Origin: a virus
UHGV virus genome: UHGV-1366171
Strand: one strand, 5' to 3'
DNA length: 64,000 nt
A program made the position numbers and the translations under genes. The notes below the pieces were generated by a model, which was given only the letters and a program-made list of their open reading frames with translations, did not search any database and was not told the origin of the DNA. Shown piece by piece: positions 7,848 to 58,693 of the stretch (positions are counted from its first letter, which is position 1; every line of letters starts with the position of its first letter).

Positions 7848-8036
7848 ATGAAATTTATATACTTTCTTGTGATGTTATCACAAATAGGAATTTGGGTAAT
7901 GATCTTTATAACTTTGTGGGTATTTACACAATTAGACATTGTTGATATAGCTCTCATTAATATTGCGATATCAAGTGTGTTTGGAGTAATGGCATTAATC
8001 AAAATTGACAAAAGTGGAGAGAAAAATGGAAATTAA
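7848..8036 (+). CDS. Small two-TM membrane protein (hypothetical)
   Basis: 62 aa, two hydrophobic helices. Confidence 0.3.
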   Translation: MKFIYFLVMLSQIGIWVMIFITLWVFTQLDIVDIALINIAISSVFGVMALIKIDKSGEKNGN

Positions 8037-28515: not shown

Positions 28516-28954
28516 AATGAATGGAGAAAGAAAAATGAGTAATAAGCTGAGGAGAAAAGTAAAATCATCGGGATATCCAATGAATGTCGCAAATTTTACT
28601 CTAAATCAAATATCAGATTTGACAAAATGCAGAGTAGATTCTCTTAAATTTTGGTGTGAAGCTAGAGAAAAAGAATTTGAAGATATTTATCAAAAAGAGG
28701 CACGAGAAAAACTAGAGAAAGCAGAAGACTATATTGCAGTGGCGAACATTTTGATTACTCTGGTTGCCATTAAAATGACTTGGGGATATACAAAGGCCAA
28801 TCAAAGGTTACTCGAAAATTATAATGCGGCAACAGAGTATGTATCCAGAAATGGCATTGAAAAAACATATCAAGAATTGCAAAAGCAAATGGGAATTGAG
28901 TTAGAATTTGATTCAATGGATATTAACAAAGAATTTGGTTTTGGAGAATACTGA
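28502..28954 (+). CDS. Hypothetical protein
   Basis: 150 aa ORF. Confidence 0.35.
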   Translation: MEIYKMNGERKMSNKLRRKVKSSGYPMNVANFTLNQISDLTKCRVDSLKFWCEAREKEFEDIYQKEAREKLEKAEDYIAVANILITLVAIKMTWGYTKANQRLLENYNAATEYVSRNGIEKTYQELQKQMGIELEFDSMDINKEFGFGEY

Positions 28955-28955
28955 T

Positions 28956-29174
28956 ATGAGGAAAATTAGTGAAATGTATAAAAGATCAGGAGGCTCATCA
29001 TGGAGACATAATTGTGAAGAATGCAAACACTTCCATCAAAATGGAAAAAAACTAAGATGTGATCTGTTTGAATCAGATGTATGTTGGAAATCAAATTATG
29101 TGGCTTGTAAATTTTTTGAAGAACCGGTACCGGAAGAAATTAATGGGCAATTAAATATCTTTGATATTTTGTAA
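28956..29174 (+). CDS. Cys-rich hypothetical protein
   Basis: MRKISEMYKRSGGSSWRHNCEECKHF...; internal start with ATGA overlap. Confidence 0.3.
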   Translation: MRKISEMYKRSGGSSWRHNCEECKHFHQNGKKLRCDLFESDVCWKSNYVACKFFEEPVPEEINGQLNIFDIL

Positions 29175-29186
29175 AATTAGAAAGGA

Positions 29187-29231
29187 GTCGGAGCCGCTGG
29201 CCAGCGAAGGGACGTCCCGGCTCCTTTTTAA
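29187..29231 (+). terminator. Intrinsic terminator GGAGCCG-loop-CGGCTCC followed by TTTTT
   Basis: Perfect 7-bp GC stem at 29191-29225 and a T-run at 29226-29230, separating the early operon from the integrase. Confidence 0.7.
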
Positions 29232-29234
29232 AAT

Positions 29235-30452
29235 ATGGAAGATCGTGATTTATTGCAGTATGCTCTTGAACATGATATGATAAGTATGTCATATATTCAG
29301 GAACAAGTAAACATGAACAAAAGAAAGGAAATATTAGAAAAACACCCGTATAAAATTTGGGAAGGAAAAGACGGAAAATGGAGAACATATATTCTCGATG
29401 AAAATGGGAAAAGAATTTTAAAAAAGCTTTCGACGAAAAAAGCAGTGCAAAATATTATTGTGAGTTATTACGAGAATATAGAAAAAGCAAAGACTGAAGA
29501 TTATAGCTTTCATTCATATTTTCAAAAATGGAAAGAAAAGCAGGTTTCTTATGGAGTTTCAAATAATACGTTGACAAAGTATGATTCGGATTATAAGCGA
29601 TATTTTGAAAATTCGAAATTTGAAAAACTTGATATAAGAAAAATCAATGAAGAAGATATTACCGCTTTTGTTATTCAGCAAATCAAAAAGCTGAACCTCA
29701 AAGAAAAAGCGGGAAAATCGCTTATGGGATATATAAACGGAGTTTTTAAACACGCGAGAATAAAAAGAATAATATCAGAAAACCCTTGCGAATACGTCGA
29801 AACAAGAAACTTTTCGAAGTTTTTTAATCGGGATAAAAAAAACCCTGAAGAAAGAACCATTAATACTAACGATTTGAATCTTTTATTGAAACAATTATAT
29901 ATTAGCCAAACCCAAAAACCTCATTATATACCGAATTATGCGGTAGAATTAGCTATATATACCGGAATGAGAATTGGGGAAATAACTGCATTAAGGTGGG
30001 AAAATATTCGCGAAGATCTGGGGGTTATTGTAATATGTTGCTCCGAAAAGCACGATAGAATAACTAAGGAATACATCGTTGATTCTACAAAAACCAGAAA
30101 AGAACGTCAATTCCCTATTACTCAAAAAATTTCAAGCTTACTTTATAAAGTGAAAAAAATAGAAATGCAGTATGGATTTCTTGGCGAATACATATTCCAG
30201 AATGAAAACGGAAAACTCCATTCTTCTTCTATCGCTCATTGTATACGTTATAGGTGTATACAGGCCGGAATTCCAGAAAAAAGCATCCAATCACTAAGGC
30301 GAACATTAAATTCAAAATTAAGATGTGCTGGTGTGTCAAGCATTGTTGCAGCATCAATGCTTGGACACACAGAAGAAGTTAATGCTTTAAATTATAGTTA
30401 TGATATTTCTGAAATGGATTATAAAAGAGAGATATTATCCGAGATTATTTGA
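29235..30452 (+). CDS. int: Tyrosine site-specific integrase
   Basis: AVELAIYTGMRIGEITALRWENI (Arg box) and AASMLGHTEEVNALNYSYD (LGH...Y) are catalytic-domain signatures; adjacent to an att site. Confidence 0.85.
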   Translation: MEDRDLLQYALEHDMISMSYIQEQVNMNKRKEILEKHPYKIWEGKDGKWRTYILDENGKRILKKLSTKKAVQNIIVSYYENIEKAKTEDYSFHSYFQKWKEKQVSYGVSNNTLTKYDSDYKRYFENSKFEKLDIRKINEEDITAFVIQQIKKLNLKEKAGKSLMGYINGVFKHARIKRIISENPCEYVETRNFSKFFNRDKKNPEERTINTNDLNLLLKQLYISQTQKPHYIPNYAVELAIYTGMRIGEITALRWENIREDLGVIVICCSEKHDRITKEYIVDSTKTRKERQFPITQKISSLLYKVKKIEMQYGFLGEYIFQNENGKLHSSSIAHCIRYRCIQAGIPEKSIQSLRRTLNSKLRCAGVSSIVAASMLGHTEEVNALNYSYDISEMDYKREILSEII

Positions 30453-30459
30453 CTTAGGC

Positions 30460-30655
30460 AATAAAAAGGTAATCACGGGTAATCAAAATGTTTGATAATC
30501 AAAAAAACGCGAAATCCTTGATTTTACAAGAAAAAACGCGTTTTTATGCATGGACCTGGCGGGAATCGAACCCGCGTCCATATCTGGAAATACCTATAAA
30601 ACAAGGGTTTTTTGTATGAGGTAATCAAAAGGTAATCAAAAAGGTAATCAGACAT
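30460..30655. other. Attachment site with attP-like architecture: a 3'-end copy of a tmRNA (ssrA)-like gene on the minus strand as core, flanked on both sides by GGTAATCA arm-type repeats
   Basis: The minus strand of 30547-30582 reads GGACGCGGGTTCGATTCCCGCCAGGTCCA, the T-arm plus acceptor 3' half; it is near-identical in form to tmRNA 3' ends such as E. coli ssrA (GGACGCGGGTTCAACTCCCGCCAGCTCCACCA, from memory), and no tRNA/tmRNA 5' half follows it. GGTAATCA occurs at 30469, 30479, 30620, 30631 and 30643. The palindrome AAAAACGCGTTTTT at 30530 abuts the core. Confidence 0.6.
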
Positions 30656-30753
30656 ATGTTCGATTTAAGTTAAAGATAAGAGGAGGAAATCCTGAATATA
30701 TGACATCGCAAAGGAATTTTGCGGTGATTTTTTGCATTATGGGAGGATTTTCT

Positions 30754-37124: not shown

Positions 37125-37724
37125 ATGAAGATTGGCTATGTCAGAGTATCAGCAGCAGACCAGAATGTGGCAAGGCAGATTAAAGCTATGCAGGAAGAAG
37201 GCGTGGAGAAAATATATATAGATAAGCAGTCAGGAAAAGACTTCAACCGTCCAGAGTACAAGAAAATGATTTCTAGCCTAAAACATGGAGATGTCCTTGT
37301 ACTTCATTCAATAGACAGGCTTGGAAGAAACTACGAGGAAATTCTTGAACAATGGAGGATTATCACAAAAGAGATCAAGGCAGATGTAATTGTTCAAGAT
37401 ATGCCGCTCCTTAATACAACAATTTCAAGAGATTTGGACGGAACCTTTATAGCAGATTTGGTACTCCAGATATTATCTTATGTTTCTGCAAAAGAGCGTG
37501 ACAACATAAAACGTAGACAGCGTGAGGGTATCGCCATTGCGAAAACACAGGGGAAATACAAAGGGGGAAAATCGAAAAGGATTGACGAGCAATTATTTAC
37601 TGAAAATCTTGTAAGATACAGAAATGGAGAAATTACAAAGTTTCAATTTGCAGTAAATATTGGTGTATCAAGACCGACACTTGACAAAATTATTAAAGAA
37701 CGGGAGGAAGCGAATAATGATTGA
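37125..37724 (+). CDS. Small serine recombinase (resolvase/invertase family)
   Basis: MKIGYVRVSAADQNVARQ ... LVLHSIDRLGRN, with the catalytic Ser in the YVRVS motif and a C-terminal HTH. Confidence 0.85.
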   Translation: MKIGYVRVSAADQNVARQIKAMQEEGVEKIYIDKQSGKDFNRPEYKKMISSLKHGDVLVLHSIDRLGRNYEEILEQWRIITKEIKADVIVQDMPLLNTTISRDLDGTFIADLVLQILSYVSAKERDNIKRRQREGIAIAKTQGKYKGGKSKRIDEQLFTENLVRYRNGEITKFQFAVNIGVSRPTLDKIIKEREEANND

Positions 37725-38178: not shown

Positions 38179-38450
38179 AATTTTACCACAATTTTCGCCT
38201 ACCGGCAAACACATCAGATAAATTCTAATTCACTTACAAAAGATAAAGCCCATTCGGGTGAATAATTCCACAAAAGATAAAATCGGGCAATCCGAAAAAA
38301 TTCCAAAAACAAAAAACGAGTTACGTCAACCGCAATTTTGGATATGACCCCTAATCATAAAACCTATGGCGTAATGTATTATGTTTCCTGAACTGCAATC
38401 TATTAAGCGTATAATTTGGGATTATAAAAGCGAAAAAACAGGAAATGTTT

Positions 38451-38523
38451 GGGAATATAGCTCAGCCAGGAGAGCACATGACTGTTAATCATGTTGTCGA
38501 AGGTTCAAGTCCTTCTGTTCCCG
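38451..38523 (+). tRNA. tRNA-Asn (anticodon GTT)
   Basis: Manual fold: acceptor GGGAATA/TGTTCCC, D-arm GCTC-AGCCAGGA-GAGC, anticodon stem CATGA/TCATG with loop CTGTTAA, T-arm GAAGG-TTCAAGT-CCTTC, discriminator G. Confidence 0.8.
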
Positions 38524-38870
38524 TTTTGGTTCTCATACAGCAGAATGAAGATGTGTCATTGGTTCAAGTCCAATCATTCCTGAAATGGAATGTCGCCCAG
38601 CTGGTAGGGCAATCTATTTATATTTTGAGAACTGTAAAAAACAGAGGTACGCAGCAACAGCAATGACTTAATGGCAAATGATTTGTATGCAAAACAAAGA
38701 AAATACGGTTCGATTCCGTGAAATATGCGTACTGTAAAAACAACTAAAAACCTATGTAACGCCAAACAGCAATTTATTCGCTTAAAAAAGCATATTGGTT
38801 CAACTCCAATCGTATCCGTGGAGGATATGCCCTAGTGGTCAAGGGAAATTGGCGTAATGAAAGGAGATTT
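38524..38870 (+). ncRNA. Array of partial tRNA-like modules (candidate Y-RNA-like / YrlA-like RNA) between tRNA-Asn and the Ro60-like gene
   Basis: No ORF on either strand. Contains a T-arm CATTGGTTCAAGTCCAATCATTCC (38555-38580), a D-arm-like GTCGCCCAGCTGGTAGGGCA (38591-38610), T-arms ACGGTTCGATTCCGT (38716-38730) and ATTGGTTCAACTCCAAT (38794-38810), and a repeated ACTGTAAAAA(A)CA. Confidence 0.4.
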
Positions 38871-38872
38871 TT

Positions 38873-40327
38873 ATGAATTTTTCAGATGTAATGAGAGAAG
38901 AAAGCAAGTGGACAAAGACCGAGAACGGAGCAGACGCAAAGAATACTACGGATTCTGCTTTGCTGGATATGTTTGCGACTATCGGTGCCATGCGTACCAG
39001 ATCAGAGGATGAGATTGTCAAGAAATTTGAGCTGGCATTTCAGGAAGACTCGTTAGGCGCTATGCGTTGCCTGTTCTATGCCAGAGACATTCATGGAGGT
39101 TTAGGCGAGCGCCGTGTGTTCCGTGTTCTTTTGACATACATAGCAAATAAGCATACAGAAGAATTAAGAAAGAACATAGATAAAATACCAGAATACGGAC
39201 GCTGGGACGACGTTTATTCTCTCGTCGGAACGAAATTAGAGGATAATATGTGGGATGATGTAAAGTATCAACTTTTAAAAGATAAAGTATTGATGAAGAA
39301 TGAAGAGTCGTCTTCCCTTCTCGCTAAATGGCTCAAAAAGGCTGATGCTTCTAGCCCGAACACTCGGAAACTGGGAATTTATACGGCAAAGAAGTTAGGA
39401 ATGTCCGTATATGACTATAAACGTCTTTGTAATCGCCTGAGAAAGCATATTGATGTTGTGGAGCAGCGCATGTCGGCCCGCCAGTGGGATACCATTAATT
39501 ATCCGGCGGTTCCATCCAGGGCAATGATGAATTACCGAAAGGCATTTGCTCGTCACGATCAGGAACGTTTTGAAGAATATATAAACAAAGTTTCCTCTGG
39601 CGAACAGAAAATCAATGCAGCCACTCTTTATCCGTATGACATTGTTGAGAAAATTTTGTATCACAGTGAGAATAGCAAGGTTCTGGAGGCTCAATGGGAT
39701 AATCTGCCAAACTACGTTGATGGAGATGTAAACGCAGTGGTTATGGCGGATGTGTCAGGCTCCATGTATGGCAGACCGATGGCAACCTCTATTGGACTGG
39801 CAATGTACTTCGCAGAGCGAAACAAAGGTGCATACCATAATCTGTTTATGACATTCTCTGGTCGCCCGAAGTTCGTGGAGATAAAAGGAAATACCATAAC
39901 TCAAAAAATCAACTTCATTTCAAGAGCAAGTTGGCAGATGAATACAGACCTTGAAGCTGCCCTGATGAAGATTCTGGATGTGGCGATTGAAAATCATTGT
40001 TCACAGGAAGAAATGCCGAAATCTCTCATTATCATTTCAGATATGGAGATTGATTGCTGCACAAACCAGAAACATAGAGAGAATTTCTACGATTATGTTT
40101 CCAGAGTATATAAGGAACATGGGTATAAAATCCCGAATGTAGTTTTCTGGAATGTTAATAGCAGGCATGATGTATTTCTGGCAGATAAGAACCGAAAGGG
40201 TGTGCAGCTTGTTTCTGGACAGTCCGTAAGCACATTTAAAAACCTGATCGGTTGCGTGGATAAGACACCGGTTGAAATGATGTATTCCGTCCTGAACAGT
40301 GACCGCTATCAGGCGATTCAGATTTGA
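38873..40327 (+). CDS. Ro60/TROVE-like protein with C-terminal von Willebrand A domain (DUF2828-like phage Ro homologue)
   Basis: About 280 aa alpha-helical N-terminal region; then a vWA with MIDAS motif AVVMADVSGSMYG ... SLIIISDMEID; position and architecture match bacterial/phage Rsr-like proteins that sit next to tRNA-like Y RNAs. Confidence 0.55.
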   Translation: MNFSDVMREESKWTKTENGADAKNTTDSALLDMFATIGAMRTRSEDEIVKKFELAFQEDSLGAMRCLFYARDIHGGLGERRVFRVLLTYIANKHTEELRKNIDKIPEYGRWDDVYSLVGTKLEDNMWDDVKYQLLKDKVLMKNEESSSLLAKWLKKADASSPNTRKLGIYTAKKLGMSVYDYKRLCNRLRKHIDVVEQRMSARQWDTINYPAVPSRAMMNYRKAFARHDQERFEEYINKVSSGEQKINAATLYPYDIVEKILYHSENSKVLEAQWDNLPNYVDGDVNAVVMADVSGSMYGRPMATSIGLAMYFAERNKGAYHNLFMTFSGRPKFVEIKGNTITQKINFISRASWQMNTDLEAALMKILDVAIENHCSQEEMPKSLIIISDMEIDCCTNQKHRENFYDYVSRVYKEHGYKIPNVVFWNVNSRHDVFLADKNRKGVQLVSGQSVSTFKNLIGCVDKTPVEMMYSVLNSDRYQAIQI

Positions 40328-43308: not shown

Positions 43309-43682
43309 TGTTAGCAAACGTGAAGATTGAGCAGGATAAGAATGATAAACACATACATAGAGTATTTGTAGATGGAAAGCAGATTGAAAAAATCACACAC
43401 CTTGATTTTCAGATAAATCCGCTGGAGATTCCTAGCGTCACATTAAATATTGAGCAAATGAGCGGTATTGATTTTGAAGGACAGGCAGATGTAAATTTCT
43501 TGGATACTCCTTTTACAATCCAGAATGCTTGCCGAATCCTTAGAGAAGAACTTCTGGAACACGAAGATCTTTATAGAGCATTCTCGGCGAGCATATATAG
43601 TGCATTAAATGAAATTCCAGAAGGTACATATATTGATAAAATGCCGGAAATTATTTTAAACAGGATTATAGGGGAGGAATGA
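43308..43682 (+). CDS. Hypothetical protein
   Basis: 124 aa. Confidence 0.35.
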   Translation: MLANVKIEQDKNDKHIHRVFVDGKQIEKITHLDFQINPLEIPSVTLNIEQMSGIDFEGQADVNFLDTPFTIQNACRILREELLEHEDLYRAFSASIYSALNEIPEGTYIDKMPEIILNRIIGEE

Positions 43683-43683
43683 T

Positions 43684-43899
43684 ATGAAAGAAAAAATTAA
43701 GCAGGGTGGAATTATAGCAGTAGTAGTAATTGGACTTTTAGTAGTGTTGTATGGAATAAGCTGGATCGTTACCTGCGGGATTATAAAACTGATTACTATG
43801 TGTTTTGGGTGGAAGTTCAGTTGGGCGATTGCTACAGGAATATGGTTGATAATTTGCATTTTGAAGAGTATTTTCAGCGTGACAGTAAAAAAGGATTAG
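43684..43899 (+). CDS. Small membrane protein
   Basis: Two TM helices (GGIIAVVVIGLLVVLYGISWIV, WAIATGIWLIICIL). Confidence 0.35.
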   Translation: MKEKIKQGGIIAVVVIGLLVVLYGISWIVTCGIIKLITMCFGWKFSWAIATGIWLIICILKSIFSVTVKKD

Positions 43900-43908
43900 G
43901 TGCAAGAT

Positions 43909-44070
43909 ATGTGGTTTAGGTATTTAATATCATTCATTGATGTTTTAATGGTTTTTTGCCTGATATATTTTATGAATGGATTGTCCTGGGAAGATAATAA
44001 AGCCTCTATTTTAGGATTCGGAATAATGTTTTTCAGTTATATAGCGAGTATTGCTCTAATGTGGATATAA
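43909..44070 (+). CDS. Small membrane protein (53 aa, below the track cutoff)
   Basis: MWFRYLISFIDVLMVFCLIYF... Confidence 0.25.
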   Translation: MWFRYLISFIDVLMVFCLIYFMNGLSWEDNKASILGFGIMFFSYIASIALMWI

Positions 44071-44078
44071 GGCTTATT

Positions 44079-44167
44079 TTGGGCTATCGCCAAGCGGTTA
44101 AGGCACCGGGCTTTGACCCCGGAAGAGAAGGAACGCTCTTTACGCTGGTTCGAATCCAGCTAGCCCA
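44079..44167 (+). tRNA. Class II (long variable arm) tRNA with apparent anticodon UUG; identity ambiguous (Ser/Leu-type body, Gln anticodon)
   Basis: Acceptor TGGGCTA/TAGCCCA, D GCC-AAGCGGTTAA-GGC, anticodon stem CCGGG/CCCGG with loop CTTTGAC, 21-nt variable arm, T-arm GCTGG-TTCGAAT-CCAGC, discriminator G. Confidence 0.5.
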
Positions 44168-44390
44168 GTTGGTTTCTGATTTTGGCATAGAAACTTTCTC
44201 CACCACCTACGGCGCAAGGCTGTGACAAAAGGAGATTCAAATGCTCCGGGTGGTTTTGTCCGACTACTGTTTGAGGACGTAAAATAAAAGAACAGCGTGT
44301 AGATTGGCGGTAAGGCGATACGATTCTAAATACCGCATGGTGCCTAAAGCAGCACGATAAATAATGCAAAAACGGGAGAAATCCCGTTAC

Positions 44391-44464
44391 GGATCATTAG
44401 CTCAGATGGTGAGAGCCGTTGCCTCATAAGCAGAAGGTCGTAGGTTCGAGTCCTACATGATCCA
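44391..44464 (+). tRNA. tRNA-Met (or Ile-lysidine), anticodon CAT
   Basis: Acceptor GGATCAT/ATGATCC, D GCTC-AGATGGTGA-GAGC, anticodon loop CTCATAA, T-arm GTAGG-TTCGAGT-CCTAC. Confidence 0.7.
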
Positions 44465-44523
44465 TTCCGCCATAGCTAGTACCCTTTGGCTGTCAGGTAC
44501 GGCAGCGGCTATGGTAGGAACCA

Positions 44524-44607
44524 CGAGACGTAGCTAAATTGGCAGAGCACTGAAAGCCGGATACAACTATGTACAGAAGACGGCGGTTCGAATCCGCCCG
44601 TCTCGAT
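44524..44607 (+). tRNA. tRNA-like gene, 84 nt, with good acceptor and T-arm but unresolved anticodon arm
   Basis: Acceptor CGAGACG/CGTCTCG and T-arm GGCGG-TTCGAAT-CCGCC are perfect; the 32 nt between D-arm and T-arm cannot be folded into a standard anticodon arm. Confidence 0.35.
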
Positions 44608-44801
44608 TTTACCACTTAGCAGGATGGGTATACCTGCTACGAAATCCTGTGAAAAAACTTTTCTAGAGAGATAAGACCAAAGGTCGTGAGGAGCAGTAGT
44701 CGGTGATTCTGGAAGATTCCCGGAAGTATGAGATGCAAAACGCCGTAAGTCTGTGGTACCTGCGACACGTTAATTGCATGGTGGTTTTATAAGGGAATAC
44801 G

Positions 44802-44874
44802 CCGATATAGTTCAATGGTAGAACGCTACACTTGTAATGTAGATGCTATTGGTTCGAGTCCGATTATCGGCTTT
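44802..44874 (+). tRNA. tRNA-Thr (anticodon TGT)
   Basis: Acceptor GCCGATA/TATCGGC, D AGTTCAATGGTAGAAC, anticodon stem CTACA/TGTAG with loop CTTGTAA, T-arm ATTGG-TTCGAGT-CCGAT. Confidence 0.75.
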
Positions 44875-45362
44875 CGTATGGAGACTTGTGCAGATACCAA
44901 TTCGCGGAATGGCAAACAGAAACTAGTGCTCTATACGTAAATTACAGCAATTCAGATGGCCGGTACATCGGCGGCGCAATAAGCCGTGAATGGTTGCTGA
45001 TAAGACTGAGATCCAGGAACTAAGGCGCGTATAATGTTGCCTGGAGGGAAAATATCAAATGGGTTTGGCCACCAGGAGATATGTTTTTCGGTAAAGTGCG
45101 GGGGTATTTTATCATGCTCAGTCTTTAATCTATCTGCCAAGTGCAGAAAAGGAATCCGGTTTTCGTATGACGATTACTGGTTTTAGCTCATGTACCAAGT
45201 GCACAAGGAGCATTCGACGCAGATGATGATAAAATATGCGTTTGAGGTGAAAATCAACCTATGCAGTCTGCGGATTGCATAACCGTGATAGGCGATATTA
45301 TATACCGGCATCGTTTGAAAAGAAATCCGAGTAAAAGCCAACTTTTCTTACCTTGTCGGTTC

Positions 45363-45438
45363 CGGGATGTAGCGTAGTTTGGTAACGCGCCTAATTTGGG
45401 ATTAGGAGATCGTCGGTTCAAATCCGGCCATTCCGGTT
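45363..45438 (+). tRNA. tRNA-Pro (anticodon TGG)
   Basis: Acceptor CGGGATG/CATTCCG (one GU pair), anticodon stem CCTAA/TTAGG with loop TTTGGGA, T-arm GTCGG-TTCAAAT-CCGGC. Confidence 0.7.
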
Positions 45439-45836
45439 GCGGCAATGTACAAATGGCATGAAACGTGAGGATTGATTTGTATTCCATTTTATGAATTGCG
45501 TGGATTGCTGTTTCGTTGTACGCATAGTTCTGATTCAACATTCAAAGTTCGGTACGTGGCCGCACAGACAGGCAAATGCCAGATGTTGATTAGCCCCACA
45601 CAGCCCTTGTGGACAAAAATGGGCATGGATAGTGGCGGAAGTAGACGCTAAGGGCAAGCATACATAGGGAGAACAGCGTAAGCCGACTGCAGGGCAGTCA
45701 AAAAGGCCATAGCAGTAACCCTGAATTATACTAAGGGGTTATATTAGATTCGGGGTGTGCGTGTGGGTATCAAATCCCACCTATCCATTCCTTAGAACTG
45801 CAATCTGAGGAAATTTGTTTATTTTCTTTCAAAGGT

Positions 45837-45960
45837 TCTGGCAGAGGTTTCAATGGACGAAACGCTCATCCGCAGGCTAATAATACTTGGTAAATAGAAG
45901 CCATTCAAGGGGATGGCTTCCGGGGACAGAAATGGGGAGTTCGATTCTCCCCTGCCAGAT
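45837..45960 (+). ncRNA. Long tRNA-like RNA (about 123 nt): 7-bp acceptor pairing and canonical T-arm enclosing an insert of about 70 nt with two internal hairpins
   Basis: CTGGCAG ... GTTTC-aatggac-GAAAC ... GAAGCCAT-tcaagggg-ATGGCTTC ... GGGAG-TTCGATT-CTCCC-CTGCCAG-A. Confidence 0.35.
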
Positions 45961-46346
45961 CGGGTGCATTGTTGTAGACAGCACTCATTTCATTACGCCA
46001 AGCCGCCTCACTATCGCTACGGTGGGGCGATATTTAAAGAGATAAATGAGGAGAATTAGATGGTGTCGCCGGTTATTAATCAGTGTTACATACAACATAG
46101 TGATTTGAGAAACTGTCAAAAAGAAATTCTAATTACATATCAAACATTGAACGGAGGAAGATTTGCAAAACAGGTTTTGTGTAATTATAGACGAGTGGAG
46201 AAGAAAATAAATGGGAAAAGCAAAACGTAAACCAAGGCCACAGCCAGCAAGATGGTATTGGTGGGATAGCGATAATTGCTGGGATTGTAAAAATCGGAAT
46301 AATTGCAATCAGTGCAAAAGAATGAAGCGGCAGAAGACTTATAAAC

Positions 46347-46631
46347 GTGAAAAAAAGGAGAGAAAGCAGAAGTATGAGCATGACTGAAATTATAGATGGT
46401 ATGACACATGAAATGGTGGGAAGCGATAGTTTTGAACAATTTATGAATAGACCATTACCTCATAACGGACAGGCGTACATACAGAGGGATTATAAAACTG
46501 GAAAAGATTATATTTGTTGTCCTTTCTGCGGAAAGAAGAACTTTCCATTAACGCCCGGAGCGCATATCACAGGGCAGAAGTTTAAGTGCAAGGGATCAAA
46601 TTGCCGGGAGATTTTTGAGGTGAATGTATGA
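46347..46631 (+). CDS. Hypothetical zinc-ribbon protein
   Basis: CCPFCGKKNF ... CKGSNCREIF. Confidence 0.35.
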   Translation: MKKRRESRSMSMTEIIDGMTHEMVGSDSFEQFMNRPLPHNGQAYIQRDYKTGKDYICCPFCGKKNFPLTPGAHITGQKFKCKGSNCREIFEVNV

Positions 46632-47099: not shown

Positions 47100-48757
47100 A
47101 TTATATCATATCTTTCAACTACTTGCAATTCAGTTTTAAATATGATATACTACAAGCAGTTGAAAGTAGTATTCTAAAAGGAATGTGGTTTAATGAATGA
47201 AGAAGATAAGGGAGACCAAGAAAGGATGCTAAAGAGTTACAAGACGGAAATCAATCCAACTATGGAACAAATACATAAAATCAATAAAACAATTGGCACT
47301 TGCCGTTTTGTATACAACTTTTATCTTGCCCGCAACAAAGAAGTTTATGAAAAAGAGAAGAAATTTGTATCTGGAATGGAGTTCTCAAAATGGCTAAATA
47401 ATGTTTATTTAAAAGAGAATCCAGAGTATGTATGGATAAAAGAGGTTAGCACAAAATCGGTAAAACAAAGCATTATGAATTCCGAAAGATCTTTTAAGAG
47501 ATTCTTCAAAGGACAGTCCGGTTTTCCTAAATTCAAGAAGAAAGGAAAATCGGATGTAAAAATGTATTTTATGAAAACAAATTCTCAGACAATAATAACA
47601 TGCGAAAGACACCGAATCAAAATATCGACACTCGGATGGGTTAGATTAAAAGAAAAGGGATATATTCCTTGGGATTCAAATACTTACATTATCAAGAGTG
47701 GTACTGTTTCTTGTAGAGCTGGACGATATTATGTATCAGTCTTGGTTGAGCAACCAGAAAGAGAAAGACTACAATTACAAGATTTTGGATTTGGAATTGA
47801 CCTTGGTGTTAAAAATTTTGCGGTTATAAGCAATGGGCTTGTAAAGAAAAACATCAATAAAACAAATAAGGTAAAAAAATTAGAAAAACAACTAAAACGA
47901 GAACAACGGTGTCTTTCTAGGAAATACGAAAGTTTAAAGAAGAATAATAAGAAAGGAGAGTCTTCCAGAGAAAATATTCAAAAACAAATATTAAAGGTGA
48001 AAAGGCTTTATTGCAGGATAGACAATATCCGCACTGACTACATCAATAAAACAATAGCTGAGATTGTGAAAACCAAACCATCTTATATCGCTGTTGAAGA
48101 TTTGAATGTATCAGGTATGATGAAGAACAGGCATCTTTCGAAGGCTGTTGCATCACAAAAATTTTATGAATTTAGAGTGAAATTGGAAGCAAAATGCAAA
48201 GAATATGGAATTGAATTGAGAATTGTAGACAGATGGTATCCATCCAGTAAACTTTGCCATGAATGTGGTTGTATCAGGAAAGACTTAAAACTTTCTGACA
48301 GAGAATATGTGTGCGAATGTGGATATCATGCAGATAGAGATTATAATGCAAGTCTTAATTTAAGAGATGCCACATCCTACAAAGTAGCATAAACAAGCAT
48401 TTGCAGGTATGTACCGATGGCTAGTCGGGAATTGACGACTGTGGAGTGTACAAGAACTTGTGAGTAGTATCTGTATTTACTCAGGGCGAAAGCATATACA
48501 GAGAAGCAGTAAGAAATGTTCGCAAGAACTTTCAATATCTCGATATGGATATCTTTGTTCATATTTTGAGTAGCAGCCAAGCGTAAGCGGAGATTGAAAA
48601 ATTTTTATATTCACAGAATCGAGATGAAAAAATGTAAAACAAGCAAAATCTTCTATGTAAATAGAAATAGAAGTTAAGTAAAATAAGATGAAATAGTAAA
48701 ATGAGAGTCATTTGAGAGCCAAATTTCTTACTAAGTAGGGAAGGAGGCTCTTTTGTT
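47100..48757 (+). mobile_element. IS200/IS605-family TnpB-only element (IS1341-like) with downstream omega-RNA/right-end region
   Basis: TnpB ORF with no TnpA; 365 bp structured non-coding tail at 48393-48757 before the terminase. Confidence 0.45.
47193..48392 (+). CDS. tnpB: TnpB (OrfB) RNA-guided nuclease-like transposase accessory protein
   Basis: N-terminal OrfB_IS605 region; RuvC-like GIDLGVKNFAVISNG...AVEDLNVSGM; C-terminal zinc finger CHECGC...CECG. Confidence 0.8.
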   Translation: MNEEDKGDQERMLKSYKTEINPTMEQIHKINKTIGTCRFVYNFYLARNKEVYEKEKKFVSGMEFSKWLNNVYLKENPEYVWIKEVSTKSVKQSIMNSERSFKRFFKGQSGFPKFKKKGKSDVKMYFMKTNSQTIITCERHRIKISTLGWVRLKEKGYIPWDSNTYIIKSGTVSCRAGRYYVSVLVEQPERERLQLQDFGFGIDLGVKNFAVISNGLVKKNINKTNKVKKLEKQLKREQRCLSRKYESLKKNNKKGESSRENIQKQILKVKRLYCRIDNIRTDYINKTIAEIVKTKPSYIAVEDLNVSGMMKNRHLSKAVASQKFYEFRVKLEAKCKEYGIELRIVDRWYPSSKLCHECGCIRKDLKLSDREYVCECGYHADRDYNASLNLRDATSYKVA

Positions 48758-50467
48758 TTGCGAGAAGGAACGCTTGAATGGTACAAAAAAATTTTTTCGG
48801 AAATCTTAAAAGACGACATGACACAATACCAAAACCAAATAGATAGCTGGCAGCTTCTTTTGAATATGAAGCAAGATTTAGGTTTTGAGGATAAAGAAAT
48901 TCGTGATTATGCTATGAAGATCAGCCAGTACACACACAAGATGGCTGACTATGTAGCAGGGCAGACGGGAAGCGGAAAGTTTAATGATTTGTACTATAAA
49001 TTGTTATTGTTGGAAGCTCAAAATTATCAAGTGGATAGCGGACTTCTATATCTGGAAAAAAATAGAGTTCCCAAGGAACGATTTTATGAGCCGCGCCGAG
49101 AGGTTTTTATAAAGCACCAAATTATCCAGTCATTACAGGATTTGATGGATGATAAACTTGATATTTTTGCTTTGAGCGTTCCACCGGGTTGTGGTAAATC
49201 AACTCTGGAAGATTTTTTCTTATCCCTTGTTGGTGGATGGTTCCCAAATGATTTTAACCTATCCTCAGCGCATAGTAGCATTTTGACCCATTCCCTTTAT
49301 GATGGCGTATTGGAAATTATAAATGACCCGGTAGAGTATACATGGCATGAAATATTTCCTAATGTAAAGCTGACTGGAACAAATGCTAAGGAAACCACAG
49401 TAAACCTCGAAAGGAATGGGCGATTTAAAACATGGACTTTTCGTTCCATAGATGGTTCGTTGACGGGAGCCACAAGATGTAATCGTTTTTTGACAGCAGA
49501 TGACTTGGTATCTGGAATTGAAGAAGCACTGAACAAGTCACGCCTGGAAACACTTTGGACAAAGGTTGTGAATGATCTTCGTTCCAGACGACTTGAAGGG
49601 TGTAAAGAAATCTATATTGCCACAAGATGGTCTGTCCATGACCCGATTGGAAAACTACAACAGCTATATGAAGGAAATCCCAAAGCCAGATTTATTGCGG
49701 TTCCGGCTTTGAACGAAGATGGCGAGAGTAACTTCATGTTTGCGGTGAATGGATTTTCAAAGAAATACTTCATGGACGCTAAGGAATCTATGGATGATCT
49801 ATCCTTTAAATGCCTGTATCAGCAACAGCCGATTGAGCGAGAGGGATTACTATTTCCTACAGATGAACTGCGCCGCTTTTTCTTCAATCGGGAGCAAGTA
49901 CCGGAAAAGCAGACAGAGTTTATTATTATGCCAGAGCGGACGCCTGATGCTATATGGGCGGTGTGCGATACAAAGGATACAGGAGCGGATTTTGAATCTT
50001 TACCGATTGCATATCAATTTGGAGAAGATTTTTTTATACCGGATGTAGTATTTGATGACACAACAGATTATGACACATTGGATATGAAATCCGCTAATAT
50101 TTTGATTCGACACAATCCCCATAAGATAAGGTTTGAATCAAATAGTGCAGGAGGCAGAGTCGCGCATAATGTTCAAAAATTGATAGATGGAAAATGTCGA
50201 GCACAGATCGAGCCTGAGAGAACACAAGCGAACAAAGAAACCAAAATATTAGTCAATTCTGATTGGATTAAAAAACACTGTATATTTTTAGACCCAAGTT
50301 TATATACGCCAAAATCAGACTATGGTTTGTTCATGGAAAATGTGGTTACATATACAGTCAAAGTTAAGCCGCCACATGATGATGGGCCAGACTCTCTGGC
50401 AATGCTTGCAGAATATGTAGCAAGGCCAGTGCAAAAACCAACAACAATAATCAATAGTCCGATTTGA
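48758..50467 (+). CDS. terL: Terminase large subunit
   Basis: Walker A-like LSVPPGCGKST; nuclease-domain acidic residues; 569 aa, immediately upstream of the portal. Confidence 0.7.
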   Translation: MREGTLEWYKKIFSEILKDDMTQYQNQIDSWQLLLNMKQDLGFEDKEIRDYAMKISQYTHKMADYVAGQTGSGKFNDLYYKLLLLEAQNYQVDSGLLYLEKNRVPKERFYEPRREVFIKHQIIQSLQDLMDDKLDIFALSVPPGCGKSTLEDFFLSLVGGWFPNDFNLSSAHSSILTHSLYDGVLEIINDPVEYTWHEIFPNVKLTGTNAKETTVNLERNGRFKTWTFRSIDGSLTGATRCNRFLTADDLVSGIEEALNKSRLETLWTKVVNDLRSRRLEGCKEIYIATRWSVHDPIGKLQQLYEGNPKARFIAVPALNEDGESNFMFAVNGFSKKYFMDAKESMDDLSFKCLYQQQPIEREGLLFPTDELRRFFFNREQVPEKQTEFIIMPERTPDAIWAVCDTKDTGADFESLPIAYQFGEDFFIPDVVFDDTTDYDTLDMKSANILIRHNPHKIRFESNSAGGRVAHNVQKLIDGKCRAQIEPERTQANKETKILVNSDWIKKHCIFLDPSLYTPKSDYGLFMENVVTYTVKVKPPHDDGPDSLAMLAEYVARPVQKPTTIINSPI

Positions 50468-51149: not shown

Positions 51150-52679
51150 GTGGTAAGAATGAAACTTGCAGGAAGAAGAAAGATATTAACAGATGAAAAA
51201 CAAATAACAGAAAAAAATATTATTCCTGTTCTTCAAAAAGCATATTCTAAGCATCGGATAAACGCCTGCGAAATGCAATTTCTTATAGATTATGAAATTG
51301 GTGTGCAGCCATTACCATACCATAAAATTGTGCGCCCAGAAATAAATATCCAAACTACCGACAATATGGCTAACTATGTGACAGAGTTTAAGAAGGGATA
51401 TTTTTGGGGGATTCCTCCTATTTATACGCAGAGAGGAAATCAAGAACCGCATGATACAGATGAGGATATAGACAGTTCCGGGATTTCAGCTTTAAATGAA
51501 ATGATGCTGAATGGAATTTGCATAGGTGCAGAAAATCAGAAATTAGCAGATTTTGTGGAAAAAACAGGTATAGGGCATAGGTTGATTGGTGTTAAAACAG
51601 AATGGGAAGATGAAAAAATTCAGAGTTCCTATGTAAATGTCAACACTTTGGATTCCAGATTTGCCTTTTGTGTCTATCATAATGGTGTCGGGCAAAAGAA
51701 GGTTTTGGGTGTCACCTATGTTAAAAGTGGGACAAAGAATTTGTTTACCTGTTTTACTGACAAGCAGCGGTTTGAGATTGAGGCAGGGAAAATTGTAGAT
51801 ATCCGGGCAAATCTGCTGGGCATGATTCCAGTTGTGGAATATGAACGCGCGGTTGATAGGACAGGTTGCTTTGAGCGGCAAATTGACCTTATGGACAACC
51901 TCAATTCCTTGGTGTCAAGCGTAGCGAATGATGCAGTGCAGCGAACGCAAGAAATCTGGTGGGCGCATAACACGGACTTTCCAGTAAACCCAGAAACGGG
52001 AGAGGAGGTTACTCCTAAGAGCGGACAATGGGTGAAAACGTATAGCGCAGAAGGGAAAGACGCAAAGATAGCTCCTTTGTCGAGCACATTGGATTCGGCT
52101 CCGGTTTTAGAGAATATCACAACGACACGCAATGAGATTTTGAAAAGGTGTTTTGTTCCAATGCAATACTCATCCGAAGGAGGAGGAAGTACCGGGATAG
52201 CCACGGACACTATGTCGGGATGGAACGCTACAGCAGTTGACGCGGCTAGGGAAGAACAGCTTGTACAGGGCGCAGCCAGAGAAGAACTAAAATTGATATT
52301 GCGGGCAATAAGTTTTGCGTCAACAGATAAATTGCCATCGGATAATCCTTTGAGGAAAATTCATCATACTGATATTAATATCCACTTCGTCAGACAGAAA
52401 AATTATGACTTGAATAGTAAAATAAATGCAAGCGCAGCGGCAGTCAATATAGGCGTACATCCTAGATGGGCGTTACAGATGGGCGGCGGCGTGTGGCCGG
52501 ATATTGAGCAAGTATGGCTTGATAGCAAGGATACTATGGAAGCATACCAGAAGTCTTTGTTTGACAAGGATAAGGAAAATGAAGCACCAGAACGGCTGAC
52601 ACAGGATGAATCAGACCAGACAGAAAATAGCCCTGGTGTAGATGGGATGCAAACAAATAATTCAAAGCAAATAGTTTAA
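51150..52679 (+). CDS. Portal protein
   Basis: 509 aa, position after the large terminase, SPP1-like portal size and composition. Confidence 0.6.
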   Translation: MVRMKLAGRRKILTDEKQITEKNIIPVLQKAYSKHRINACEMQFLIDYEIGVQPLPYHKIVRPEINIQTTDNMANYVTEFKKGYFWGIPPIYTQRGNQEPHDTDEDIDSSGISALNEMMLNGICIGAENQKLADFVEKTGIGHRLIGVKTEWEDEKIQSSYVNVNTLDSRFAFCVYHNGVGQKKVLGVTYVKSGTKNLFTCFTDKQRFEIEAGKIVDIRANLLGMIPVVEYERAVDRTGCFERQIDLMDNLNSLVSSVANDAVQRTQEIWWAHNTDFPVNPETGEEVTPKSGQWVKTYSAEGKDAKIAPLSSTLDSAPVLENITTTRNEILKRCFVPMQYSSEGGGSTGIATDTMSGWNATAVDAAREEQLVQGAAREELKLILRAISFASTDKLPSDNPLRKIHHTDINIHFVRQKNYDLNSKINASAAAVNIGVHPRWALQMGGGVWPDIEQVWLDSKDTMEAYQKSLFDKDKENEAPERLTQDESDQTENSPGVDGMQTNNSKQIV

Positions 52680-57267: not shown

Positions 57268-57987
57268 ATGATGAGTGAGGGATTATCAGCGAGTGATGTT
57301 GCAGTTTTAACTGGCAACACTAATAACCGTGGCTGTAATGATGGCTTTGGATGGGGCGGAGAATGGATTTGGATTATTCTTCTGTTCTGCCTGTTCGGCT
57401 GGGGAGGCTTCGGCGGAGGCTGGGGTGGAAATGGTGGTGGATTTAATACACCTTCCGCGAATGGTGCTTTAACCAGAGCCGAAATGTTTGAGGGTTTCCA
57501 GGGACAGGGGTTCAACGATCGCCTGACAGGAATCCGTGATGGACAGTTTGGAATCGAACAGTCTTTGTGTAACGGATTTAATGGTGTGCAGCAGGGATTT
57601 AACTCTATTGCAACACAGATGGCAAATTGCTGCTGTGATTTAAAACAGGGGCAGGGCGAAATTTCCTATAATATCGCAATGCAGACCAATAGCTTACAGA
57701 ACACCATGAATCAGAACGCAAACGCTCTCCAGAGTCAGCTTTGCAATGGATTTAGAGATGTGATTGATGCACAGAACGCAGGAACACAGAGAATCGTTGA
57801 CCTGATTACTCAGGACAAGATTTCTTCTCTCCAGACTGAACTTCAGTCCGCGCAGCTTCAGCTTGCTAACGCAAATCAGACGACGAATATCGTTAATGCT
57901 TTACGCAGCCCGGCTCCTATTCCGGCTTATACGGTTCCTAACCCATACGCTTATACAGGGTGCGGATGCGGGACTTGCGGCTGCTAA
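57268..57987 (+). CDS. Gly/Trp-rich membrane protein with Q/N-rich coiled region and Cys-Gly C-terminus
   Basis: GFGWGGEWIWIILLFCLFGWGGFGGGWGGNGGGFN ... CCCDLKQGQG ... ends YTGCGCGTCGC. Confidence 0.45.
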   Translation: MMSEGLSASDVAVLTGNTNNRGCNDGFGWGGEWIWIILLFCLFGWGGFGGGWGGNGGGFNTPSANGALTRAEMFEGFQGQGFNDRLTGIRDGQFGIEQSLCNGFNGVQQGFNSIATQMANCCCDLKQGQGEISYNIAMQTNSLQNTMNQNANALQSQLCNGFRDVIDAQNAGTQRIVDLITQDKISSLQTELQSAQLQLANANQTTNIVNALRSPAPIPAYTVPNPYAYTGCGCGTCGC

Positions 57988-58199: not shown

Positions 58200-58273
58200 T
58201 CTTGCGAAAATAACGAAAAGGGGTAGACGTGGTAAGTTTATCCCTTTTCTTCATTGGAAAGGAGATAAAGAAT

Positions 58274-58693
58274 ATGGCTGAATTTACAAGCCCGTTTGTT
58301 CAGAGGATAGCGGCTGGGCAGAATGCAGTGTTGTTAGAAGATCCTGTTAAAAGTAGATGTGTAAATCATCGTGCAGGTTCTGGTCTGGTTTGTGTGGCAA
58401 ATAGCGGAAACGACTGTAATCCTGCGAGATATAGAGTATATGGAAAGGCAAATATAGCTATTCCAACTGGCGGAACAGTTGGAGCGATTTCGCTTGGATT
58501 ATCATTAAATGGAGAGGTGTTACAGACATCCCTTGCAACGGTTACTCCGGCAGCAGTAGAAAATTTCTTTAATGTCTCTTTTGAAGAAATTGTTTGCGCT
58601 GGGAAGTGCCAGGTAAACTTGGCAATAACCAATCCCAACACCCAGGCAATCGAAGTTGAAAATTTAACGCTTATTGTAGAGCGTGAGTGCTAG
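58274..58693 (+). CDS. Beta-rich hypothetical protein
   Basis: Start ATGGCTGAATTT with RBS GGAAAGGAG (the track ORF begins at 58229). Confidence 0.4.
   Translation: MAEFTSPFVQRIAAGQNAVLLEDPVKSRCVNHRAGSGLVCVANSGNDCNPARYRVYGKANIAIPTGGTVGAISLGLSLNGEVLQTSLATVTPAAVENFFNVSFEEIVCAGKCQVNLAITNPNTQAIEVENLTLIVEREC

Follow-up and report, generated by a model that had tools for sequence, protein, structure and literature searches.

A probable tRNA and non-coding RNA island in a Blautia hydrogenotrophica prophage, with a long-arm tRNA-Gln and tRNA-shaped units that lack an anticodon arm

The stretch UHGV-1366171, whose 64,000 nucleotides (nt; 38% GC) are referred to here as the window, carries between positions 44079 and 45960 a series of tRNA genes and other tRNA-shaped units set among structured spacers. 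The series is probably a co-transcribed tRNA/non-coding RNA island of a Blautia hydrogenotrophica prophage, in which decoding tRNAs are combined with tRNA-derived RNAs that do not decode. One of the decoders, with the anticodon UUG, has a tRNA-Gln body with a hairpin inserted in its variable loop. Two of the non-decoders, elements 6 and 7, are conserved tRNA-derived RNAs in which a larger domain takes the place of the anticodon arm.

Composition of the island

An earlier note on this DNA had described a spaced phage tRNA array with structured spacers, six tRNA-shaped members and some atypical ones among these, and this picture stands. In the interval 44079-45960, ARAGORN calls four tRNAs, Gln(ttg), Met(cat), Thr(tgt) and Pro(tgg), which score 60-73 bits in Rfam; the last three are canonical, as had been proposed. 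Rfam adds a fifth unit at 44524-44606 (48.7 bits against a gathering score of 29). The sixth, at 45837-45960, is called by neither program at default settings, and is recognised through a diverged homologue with compensatory stem changes. All six units are recovered by a simple search for a 7-base-pair (bp) acceptor stem linked to a T arm; the + strand of the window yields nine modules of this kind, and shuffled windows yield about 0.35 each. At least two more units lie within the island, at 44202-44254 (53 nt) and 45626-45789 (164 nt). The units are as follows, with labels such as L001 and L002 denoting related contigs and loci that were fetched for comparison.

44080-44168, + strand: tRNA-Gln(UUG), a Gln-type body whose variable region of 21 nt forms a hairpin (ARAGORN, 44079-44169, 91 nt; Rfam, 60.3 bits; alignment to L001 and L002)
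44202-44254, + strand: block A, a 53-nt mini tRNA-like unit followed by UUUU (86-93% identical across relatives' contigs)
44391-44464, + strand: tRNA with a CAU anticodon, elongator Met or possibly Ile2 (ARAGORN; Rfam, 64.4 bits)
44524-44606, + strand: element 5, a tRNA-like unit whose acceptor, D and T arms are perfect (Rfam, 48.7 bits)
44801-44872, + strand: tRNA-Thr(UGU), canonical (ARAGORN; Rfam, 73.1 bits)
45362-45437, + strand: tRNA-Pro(UGG), canonical (ARAGORN; Rfam, 65.4 bits)
45626-45789, + strand: element 7, a 164-nt tRNA-like RNA (after spacer block F in L001, L008, L013, L017, L019 and L022; T stems covary)
45837-45960, + strand: element 6, a 124-nt tRNA-derived RNA (fold; homologues in L008 and L018)

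The gaps between units measure about 222, 59, 194, 490, 188 and 47 nt. The spacers are structured, as had been claimed, but their length is not uniformly 150-500 nt, since gaps of 59 and 47 nt occur. No open reading frame (ORF) of at least 100 amino acids (aa) was found within 44070-46060. The island is present at 99.9% identity in three independent metagenome contigs (L015, L020 and L025), and an assembly artefact is thereby ruled out. At permissive thresholds, Rfam finds nothing in the island besides tRNA: no GOLLD, ROOL, RNase P, group I intron, HDV-like ribozyme, tmRNA or tRNA-Sec. A blastn search against GenBank phages returned generic tRNA matches only and no close relative. Scans of IMG/VR with exact island blocks supplied three related contigs only, and a metagenome scan supplied further ones. 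With several tRNA genes on one strand of a genome that has terminase and portal genes and lies as a prophage beside rnr-smpB, the island qualifies as a phage tRNA array.

The island lies between early small genes and the genes for TnpB and terminase. It would be transcribed from the + strand as one or a few precursors, which host tRNA-processing enzymes (RNase P, plus RNase Z or exonucleases) would then cut. Its four decoders, Gln-UUG, CAU (Met or Ile2), Thr-UGU and Pro-UGG, together with a tRNA-Asn(GUU) encoded 6 kb upstream, would read mostly A-ending codons. Codon usage of the phage ORFs is in keeping with this: ACA, CCA, ATA and CAA account for 0.49, 0.36, 0.28 and 0.40, respectively, and the anticodons UGU, UGG, UUG and possibly CAU (as Ile2) fit these frequent A-ending codons. 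All three stop codons are used. The CAU tRNA is found in nearly all related arrays. Its G1-C72 pair is intact, so that it is not an initiator, and its T arm resembles the one in tRNA-Ile2 of Firmicutes. Lysidine modification may enable it to decode AUA, in which case it would match the set of A-ending codons.

The non-decoders are element 5, the 53-nt mini unit and elements 6 and 7. Selection retains the acceptor/T minihelix in these, as a rule together with the D arm, but does not preserve the anticodon arm. The minihelix would act as a handle for processing and stabilisation that punctuates the precursor and presents a variable or a conserved central domain. A precedent exists in the tRNA region of phage T4, which yields RNAC and RNAD, both of unknown role (PMC3014915). 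The tRNA regions of T4 and T5 resemble the island in that phage tRNA genes are interleaved with other stable RNAs, probably released by tRNA enzymes, and in that the decoders fit codon usage. The island differs from these regions in its conserved structured spacers, its swapped cassettes and its tRNA-shaped members without an anticodon arm; the likeness considered here is one of arrangement. The finding of anticodon-less, tRNA-shaped RNAs with compensatory changes, also in unrelated loci, suggests that phage tRNA arrays hold more than decoders, a question that dates back to T4 RNAC and RNAD.

Units without an anticodon arm

In element 6, the acceptor has 7 bp, the D-like hairpin has 5 bp and a GG loop, and the T arm reads GGGAG-UUCGAUU-CUCCC; the folding energy is -48.7 kcal/mol (z = -3.95). 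At its centre, two hairpins, CAGG-9 nt-CUUG and one of 10 bp, meet in a junction that takes the place of the anticodon loop. The element is 100% identical in L008. In L018 a 91-nt core is 93% identical, while the acceptor has been rewritten from UCUGGCA/UGCCAGA to GUUGCGU/ACGCAAC, with five of its seven pairs changed on both sides; two of the five T-stem pairs are also changed on both sides, and no pair is broken. A thirteenth pair (8/5 or 7/6) is possible in the window but absent in L018, so that the frame is 7/5. The same slot in L017 and L019 holds a minihelix of about 50 nt, made up only of an acceptor and a T arm.

The fold agrees with the earlier description of element 6 as a 7-bp acceptor and a T arm around an insert. 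Of the identities then suggested for it, a tRNA-like and possibly regulatory RNA fits best; an intron-containing tRNA or a selC-like gene is disfavoured by the lack of an Rfam match and by the non-canonical site of the insert. Rfam searches for tRNA-Sec, tmRNA and group I introns gave no match for any of the atypical units. For tRNA-Sec in particular, which has a UCA anticodon, 13 bp (8/5) in its acceptor and T stems and a 4-nt loop on a long D stem, there is no match to element 6 at E<=5 and no UCA loop, and the L018 homologue is 7/5. A group I intron is discounted in the absence of an Intron_gpI match at E<=5 and with inserts of about 70-110 nt; such introns interrupt the anticodon loop, contain a P3-P8 core and usually measure 200 nt or more. 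When introns are allowed, ARAGORN returns only the four canonical tRNAs by default, and relaxed settings place inserts at 30/31, 35/36 and 26/27 with mismatched stems, the canonical site being 37/38. An alternative pairing in element 6, CAUCC/GGAUG, would expose the loop UUCAAGG ('Leu-CAA') with a 32-nt insert between positions 31 and 32, and falls below the ARAGORN threshold. We know of no bacterial enzyme that would remove such an insert. The tmRNA mode of ARAGORN is empty for elements 6 and 7 even when relaxed, their third pair is U-A or G-C and their lengths are 124 and 164 nt, whereas tmRNAs, of about 250 nt or more, combine pseudoknots and a tag reading frame with a tRNA-Ala-like end that has G3-U70. 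The one tmRNA signal that Rfam gives, a chance match of 16 bits to permuted tmRNA, lies elsewhere. A short reading frame in element 6 (MDETLIRRLIILGK, followed by a stop) is preserved in L018, stop included, but its substitutions are non-conservative, and it was rejected as a peptide or tmRNA-like tag.

Element 7 has the acceptor UGGAUAG/CUAUCCA, the D arm GUGGCGGAAGUAGACGC, which we take to be tRNA-Leu-like, and the T arm GUGGG...CCCAC (folding energy -51.1 kcal/mol, z -2.48). It follows block F in seven diverged arrays, and the whole unit is 102-163 nt long in relatives. Its core, which replaces the anticodon arm, is hypervariable and entirely different between lineages. The T stems covary (GUGGG/CCCAC, GUGUGG/CCACAC and GUACGG/CCGUAC), and a core hairpin changes in a compensatory manner from UAACCCU...AGGGGUUA in the window to UAAUGCU...AGGCAUUA in L008.

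Similar units are not confined to this phage group. In unrelated phage tRNA loci (about 1.7 Mb), 16 enlarged tRNA-like units (95-260 nt) were found in which the acceptor, D and T arms are all intact, against none in reversed controls. They occur in L026, L063, L083, L111, L123, L125 and others; the unit of L063 is duplicated, and its D arm is tRNA-Leu-like, as in element 7.

Element 5 is of a different kind. Here, 21 nt replace the 11 central positions of the anticodon stem-loop, and a 3-bp stem (CUG/CAG) encloses the 21 nt. The anticodon region at 44524-44607 had been called unfoldable, and no usable anticodon arm could indeed be found: ARAGORN does not call the unit by default, and a relaxed run forces Cys(aca) with two stem mismatches. 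A BLAST search of element 5 against all fetched loci gave identical copies of the same phage only. What relatives carry in this slot is tRNA-Phe, tRNA-Pro or tRNA-Cys; L008 has there a long-arm unit of 101 nt, with an 'anticodon' hairpin that closes on a loop of 3 nt. Element 5 is thus most likely a non-decoding tRNA that has probably degenerated recently, and any function may be ascribed to it with low confidence only. The lack of conserved homologues, which had been named as a sign of pseudogenes, therefore applies to element 5 but not to elements 6 and 7.

The 53-nt mini unit, block A, is composed of three helices. The terminal stem has 7 bp (ACCACCU/GGGUGGU); the others are a GCAA hairpin and one that resembles a T arm and has the loop UUCAAAU. 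Its consensus fold is mostly invariant; two T-stem pairs covary and some are broken.

Alternatively, all the non-canonical units could be decaying tRNA pseudogenes and recombination scars without function. Several features recall such decay: the absence of element 5 homologues other than identical copies, the exchange of its slot for Phe, Pro, Cys or another aberrant unit, the hypervariable cores of element 7, and the resemblance of the sub-threshold ARAGORN calls to disrupted tRNAs. Decay, however, should strike all arms, whereas in these units the acceptor, D and T arms are perfect and the anticodon arm alone has been lost, repeatedly. The stems of element 6 are preserved by compensatory double changes, as is the T stem in element 7. 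In addition, the element 6 core is well kept in L018 despite the rewritten acceptor, and element 7 is kept after block F in all seven diverged arrays. We consider it unlikely, therefore, that the units are functionless.

A further possibility concerns a group of genes 6 kb upstream of the island:

38451-38868, + strand: tRNA-Asn(GUU), and after it two or three putative RNAs of YrlA type with a permuted tRNA-like module (ARAGORN, tRNA-Asn at 38450-38524; Rfam; folds)
38873-40327, + strand: gene for a 484-aa DUF2828 + DUF7788/vWA protein, PHROG 850 'RNA-binding protein' (family searches)

The Rfam score of one YrlA-like RNA, at 38528-38636, is 43.3 bits (local E 3.7e-8), below the gathering score of 69, and its protein neighbour is without a detectable TROVE domain. 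A second permuted unit folds at 38743-38868. They lie directly upstream of the DUF2828/vWA gene, and L001 and L002 have YrlA hits in the corresponding place. Just upstream of this tRNA-Asn/YrlA/DUF2828 cluster, at 37125-37724, is a gene for a serine recombinase/invertase (PHROG 125; in L216, Resolvase by Pfam).

DUF2828 may be a divergent Ro-like family. If so, the tRNA-like RNAs of the island could be partners of a Ro60-like DUF2828/vWA ring and could tether tRNA-handling or RNA-decay enzymes to it, as YrlA does for Rsr, although we judge this improbable. Such a partnership would fit the YrlA-like RNAs directly 5' of the DUF2828 gene in three phages (the window, L001 and L002), the PHROG label of its product, the order of a helical N-terminal half and a vWA domain, which is that of Ro60, and the recurrence of DUF2828 genes beside tRNA genes in unrelated phage loci; phage YrlA RNAs beside Ro60 are also known (PMC4201824). 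On the other hand, single-sequence and profile searches of the PDB and a Pfam search at E<=10 with ten diverse DUF2828 members gave no TROVE/Ro60 hit, and an AlphaFold model built from a shallow alignment (predicted local distance difference test, pLDDT, of 51) is too poor for comparison. Next to the more distant DUF2828 genes of L003, L004 and L007, no YrlA hit was obtained, and a literature search on DUF2828 function returned nothing specific. For the island units themselves, the YrlA model finds no match in 43500-46600 at E<=5. The YrlA Y RNAs (RF02553; PMC4201824) are likewise phage-encoded, non-decoding tRNA mimics, but their tRNA-like module is circularly permuted in the Ro-binding stem, whereas elements 5-7 have normal tRNA topology; the ends of elements 6 and 7 are in the acceptor stem, which is the opposite of YrlA. 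Elements 5-7, which lie 4-6 kb from the DUF2828 gene, were thus rejected as YrlA RNAs.

The long-arm tRNA-Gln(UUG)

The first tRNA of the island is 89 nt long. Its acceptor is UGGGCUA/UAGCCCA followed by G73, which provides U1-A72, G2:C71 and G3:C70. The D arm is AUCGCCAAGCGGUUAAGGCA, the T arm is canonical and the anticodon arm is CCGGG-CUUUGAC-CCCGG, with a 7-nt loop on a 5-bp stem that includes U35, G36 and A37. The loop CUUUGAC, the 21-nt variable region and G73 had all been read correctly in the earlier note, and the loop does specify UUG. The variable region contains a 5-bp hairpin, in contrast to the short loop (4-5 nt) of class I tRNAs.

To our knowledge, textbooks describe long variable arms in bacteria for tRNA-Leu, tRNA-Ser, tRNA-Tyr and tRNA-Sec alone. 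An arm of at least 10 nt would place the tRNA in class II with Ser, Leu and Tyr, but neither the body nor the anticodon is of these types. The body had been taken for a seryl/leucyl-type scaffold; however, three lines of evidence point to a Gln type. Firstly, identity outside the variable region reaches at most 0.86 with class I tRNA-Gln and 0.97 with other long-arm tRNA-Gln, against 0.74 with Ser and 0.65 with Leu, even though the Ser comparison set was pre-selected for a common D-arm motif; the ranking is Gln > Glu > Ser > Leu. Secondly, the tRNA has the Gln base set. The E. coli GlnRS set comprises a weak U1-A72, G73, G2:C71 and G3:C70, and U1-A72 is a feature for GatCAB. Thirdly, the same slot in L002 holds an ordinary 73-nt tRNA-Gln that can be aligned base for base with the window tRNA except for the inserted hairpin. 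In L001, the slot is occupied by a 92-nt long-arm version with an unrelated arm sequence, AACAAUC...GAUUGUU. With bacterial class I tRNA-Gln, the window tRNA shares U1-A72, G73, G2:C71, G3:C70, the D arm AUCGCCAAGCGGU(U)AAGGCA and the loop CUUUGAC; it differs in the 21-nt hairpin variable region instead of 5 nt and in C38 for U38.

Pattern scans show this form to be recurrent and borne by mobile elements. A Gln-specific scan found long-arm tRNA-Gln(UUG) in 61 IMG/VR contigs, and 14 hits on bacterial-genome contigs were obtained among 185,579 species (one genome each). Nearly all of the 14 lie on contigs of gut Clostridia metagenome-assembled genomes, and every one lies within a dense tRNA array, one of which also has a tmRNA and a tRNA with a CUA anticodon. 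The 38 distinct long-arm sequences have variable regions of 11-29 nt with mutually unrelated arms. A hairpin of at least 3 bp forms in 36 of these arms (mean z = -1.78 versus shuffles), with stems that range from 0 to 8 bp across the family and flanking unpaired bases that vary widely. The Gln set is largely kept: U1 and A72 in 32 of the 38 each, G73 in 29 and G2:C71 in 37. Members of the subfamily that includes the window tRNA have the arm motif GAGA(A)GGAAC(G/A)CUC in common, and their acceptor stems differ. Between the same flanks, the first slot of the array holds three forms of Gln(UUG): class I (L002, L021 and L024), long-arm (the window and L001), and an odd-elbow form (L008 and L019) with a D loop that lacks GG and a non-canonical T loop. 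The only window proteins that co-occur with long-arm tRNA-Gln loci are two late-region ones (57268-57987 and 58229-58693) in one related phage clade; the idea of a co-occurring enzyme was dropped, as no other window protein tracks these loci.

A literature search found no description of a class II or long-arm tRNA-Gln. The nearest known forms are nev-tRNAs of nematodes (PMC3333845) and allo-tRNAs of bacteria and phages (PMC5389517), which have long arms with non-Ser/Leu anticodons. Both share with the window tRNA a long arm together with an anticodon foreign to Leu, Ser and Tyr, and an occurrence in metagenomes and in polycistrons of irregular tRNAs. Allo-tRNAs differ in their 8/4 or 9/3 acceptor/T stems and their Ser or Ala identity elements; the window tRNA has a 7-bp acceptor and a 5-bp T stem, and the 7/5 configuration of the long-arm family means that its members are not allo-tRNAs (PMC5389517). 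Nev-tRNAs differ in having Leu bodies. A tRNA-Gln with a long arm, present in dozens of gut phage genomes with unrelated arm sequences, adds a structural class.

Apart from this family, many long-arm phage tRNAs of 82-99 nt occur in L026-L145, with Asn(GUU), Ile(UAU), Lys, Met, Cys, Trp and Thr anticodons. In several, the D arm is of Ser type (GGCCGAGUGG...AAGGCA). Some of these tRNAs may be allo-tRNAs, and others resemble 7/5 Ser-bodied tRNAs with non-Ser anticodons.

Through its retained U1-A72, G73 and UUG anticodon, the long-arm tRNA would be charged with Gln, or with Glu followed by amidation. Its Gln body, U1-A72, the widely varying arm geometry in the family, the plain tRNA-Gln in the same slot of relatives and the presence of 500 Gln codons in the sampled phage ORFs argue that it is a Gln decoder. 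It is known that variable arms can be replaced with the tRNA staying active in translation (PMC7590224). The remodelling of the body would reflect selection outside the anticodon, for example escape from a host nuclease directed at tRNA. By analogy, the diversification of the Gln body around a fixed anticodon recalls an arms race centred on tRNA-Tyr, in which retron-Eco7 and Septu cut the tRNA-Tyr variable loop and the tRNA-Tyr of phage T5 escapes via its distinct variable loop (PMC13096335). In both cases the anticodon is kept and the variable region is unlike that of the host tRNA. However, T5 tRNA-Tyr is already class II and its role against defence has been shown experimentally, whereas for the island a link with defence would be drawn from this comparison.

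Extended to the whole island, this reasoning would make the non-decoding RNAs and the remodelled tRNA-Gln bodies anti-defence decoys, which titrate or evade host nucleases that target tRNAs. The counteraction of tRNA-cleaving defences by phage tRNAs, as in T5 (PMC13096335), would be a precedent, and a decoy role would suit the presence of three Gln(UUG) body types in one slot and the retention of the acceptor/T/D shape without an anticodon. Against this, the argument is one of analogy. In Blautia, moreover, we know of no nuclease directed at tRNA-Gln, and decoys seem to us a doubtful explanation.

The least probable account, in our view very unlikely, is the missense decoding that the earlier note had proposed, namely that the long arm and G73 make the UUG tRNA a substrate of SerRS, which would insert Ser at CAA/CAG or confer a dual identity. 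SerRS does recognise chiefly a long variable arm together with G73, and not the anticodon (PMC7609411, PMC5389517), and the window tRNA carries G73 together with G2:C71 and an arm of 5 bp. There are precedents for Ser insertion by long-arm tRNAs whose anticodons are not those of Ser (allo-tRNAs, PMC5389517), and the fetched phage loci contain many long-arm tRNAs with Asn, Ile, Lys, Cys or Trp anticodons. However, missense decoding had been deduced from a Ser/Leu scaffold and loses its support with it, the body being Gln-type and not Ser-type. In addition, stems of 0-8 bp in 11-29 nt do not point to a geometry fixed for SerRS, most of the family retains the Gln/GatCAB feature U1-A72, and a plain class I tRNA-Gln fills the same slot in relatives. 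As this is the sole phage-encoded tRNA-Gln and the sampled phage ORFs contain 500 Gln codons, a general replacement of Gln by Ser would be costly.

Several points weigh against a co-transcribed island of decoders and tRNA-derived RNAs. Sigma-70 and terminator scans are not clearly above background. Element 6 is known in two distinct sequences only, block A is nearly invariant, so that covariation says little on its fold, and neutral decay would produce both an element 5 without homologues and variable element 7 cores. Complementarity of the element 5-7 cores to other parts of the window is at chance level only, and on this ground antisense targets within the window were rejected. Lastly, nuclease escape is argued from analogy alone, and the combination of a long arm and G73 is the recognition signature of SerRS, which leaves Gln identity unproven.

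It is tempting to speculate on a linked pair of ideas, which as a pair we rate as unlikely. The long-arm and odd-elbow tRNA-Gln would be products of an arms race in gut Clostridia phages, driven by nuclease escape or by a second (Ser) identity. Elements 6 and 7 and their relatives would form an undescribed class of phage RNA, in which a tRNA acceptor/T/D scaffold serves to process, stabilise and display an exchangeable domain, possibly together with the Ro-like DUF2828 protein and the YrlA-like RNAs. The long-arm tRNA-Gln offers a test case for how GlnRS or GluRS/GatCAB as opposed to SerRS, and defence nucleases, read the variable region. The host, Blautia hydrogenotrophica, is a cultivable human gut species, and the prophage is present in sequenced assemblies.

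Spacers, host and neighbouring genes

The spacers of the island contain the following conserved blocks and hairpins:

44172-44199, + strand: hairpin GUUUCU...AGAAAC right after tRNA-Gln (RNAalifold: three of five pairs changed on both sides in relatives)
44336-44390, + strand: conserved block before tRNA-Met, with the hairpin ACGGGA-GAAA-UCCCGU directly 5' of the tRNA (L001, L002, L008, L019, L021 and L022)
44465-44523, + strand: long hairpin CCAUAGC...GCUAUGG after tRNA-Met (conserved in L002, L008, L019, L021 and L022)
44609-44727, + strand: block C (77% identical to L001 15706-15808; also in L008)
44946-44999, + strand: block E (82-85% identical to L002, L021 and L022)
45130-45206, + strand: block D, with two CCAAGTGCA(G/C)AA boxes (92.6% identical to L001 15842-15895)
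45535-45625, + strand: block F, a CRISPR protospacer (conserved in relatives; spacer in L012)
45788-45812, + strand: hairpin with the 7-nt loop ACUGCAA (found by reading; stem covaries in L017 and L018; terminator-like in a scan)
45961-46059, + strand: 3' flank of the island, in which the hairpin CGCCUCAC...GUGGGGCG immediately precedes the ribosome-binding site of the following gene (81-90% identical in L008, L018 and L019)

Two details of the earlier description hold here: the hairpin CCAUAGC...GCUAUGG folds at -24.3 kcal/mol (z -2.27), and the repeated CCAAGTGCA(G/C)AA boxes are found twice, at 45137 and 45195. The hairpin of block F changes from CCACA/UGUGG to CUGCA/UGCAG in relatives, with two pairs altered on both sides. 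Blocks A-F are conserved over ten distinct arrays, and the tRNA cassettes between them differ; cassettes are exchanged among relatives between conserved spacers.

Between blocks D and F, relatives carry a conserved non-coding element of about 420 nt with the motifs GUAAGUCGAUGUAUAAGUCGUG and GCGGGACGCCGGGCUUAUAUCGCA (L001 15842-16258, L002 ~7395-7860 and L008 ~6260-6780). The window is without most of it and has tRNA-Pro in its place. A permissive Rfam search of the large conserved spacer of L001 gave no match beyond tRNA. Two suspicions, namely theta/HDV-like ribozymes following the tRNAs and a core resembling RNase P in the spacer of the relatives, found no support in Rfam and were discarded. 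Elsewhere in L001, at 1038-1104 on the - strand, a type II hammerhead ribozyme scores 48.1 bits, which is over the gathering score.

The motif GAACUGCAAUCU of the hairpin at 45788-45812 recurs at 38390-38401. The 12-mer GAACTGCAATCT, which covers the loop and 3' side of this hairpin (45795-45806) before element 6, is found again about 50 nt before tRNA-Asn (38390-38401). It could be a promoter, operator or processing signal common to both RNA clusters.

All genes of the phage are on the + strand, and those for the terminase large subunit (48758-50467) and the portal (51150-52679) come after the island. The 484-aa DUF2828 protein is identical to a Blautia hydrogenotrophica protein on contigs of up to 3.6 Mb. 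In two contigs of about 294-296 kb (L216 and L217, an NCBI assembly and a metagenome scaffold), the prophage begins right after rnr-smpB, the usual site for prophages integrated at the tmRNA gene, and this position points to such an integration. The island thus most likely belongs to a temperate siphovirus-type phage of this host. The left of the window, up to about 30.5 kb, differs from L216/L217 (1-1900 was compared with ~28900-30750) and includes a 405-aa ORF at 29235-30452; the window may be a permuted phage genome or represent a different insertion.

Two further features lie between the island and the terminase gene:

47193-48392, + strand: gene for TnpB (IS605 OrfB / Cas12f-like)
48438-48512: RAGATH-18 RNA right after TnpB (Rfam, 62.2 bits)

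The RAGATH-18 RNA is probably the guide (omega) RNA region of the TnpB element. L012, a contig of 2121 nt (ERZ1090866), carries a CRISPR array of 26 repeats with spacers of 34-37 nt. Its 30-nt repeat, GATAAAGTAGAAGCATAGTGGAATGTAAAT, ends in GGAATGTAAAT and is presumably of a Clostridia type I-B-like kind. Spacer 20 of this array is identical to block F in the form present in L002, L017 and L018, and this non-coding block is therefore a CRISPR target.

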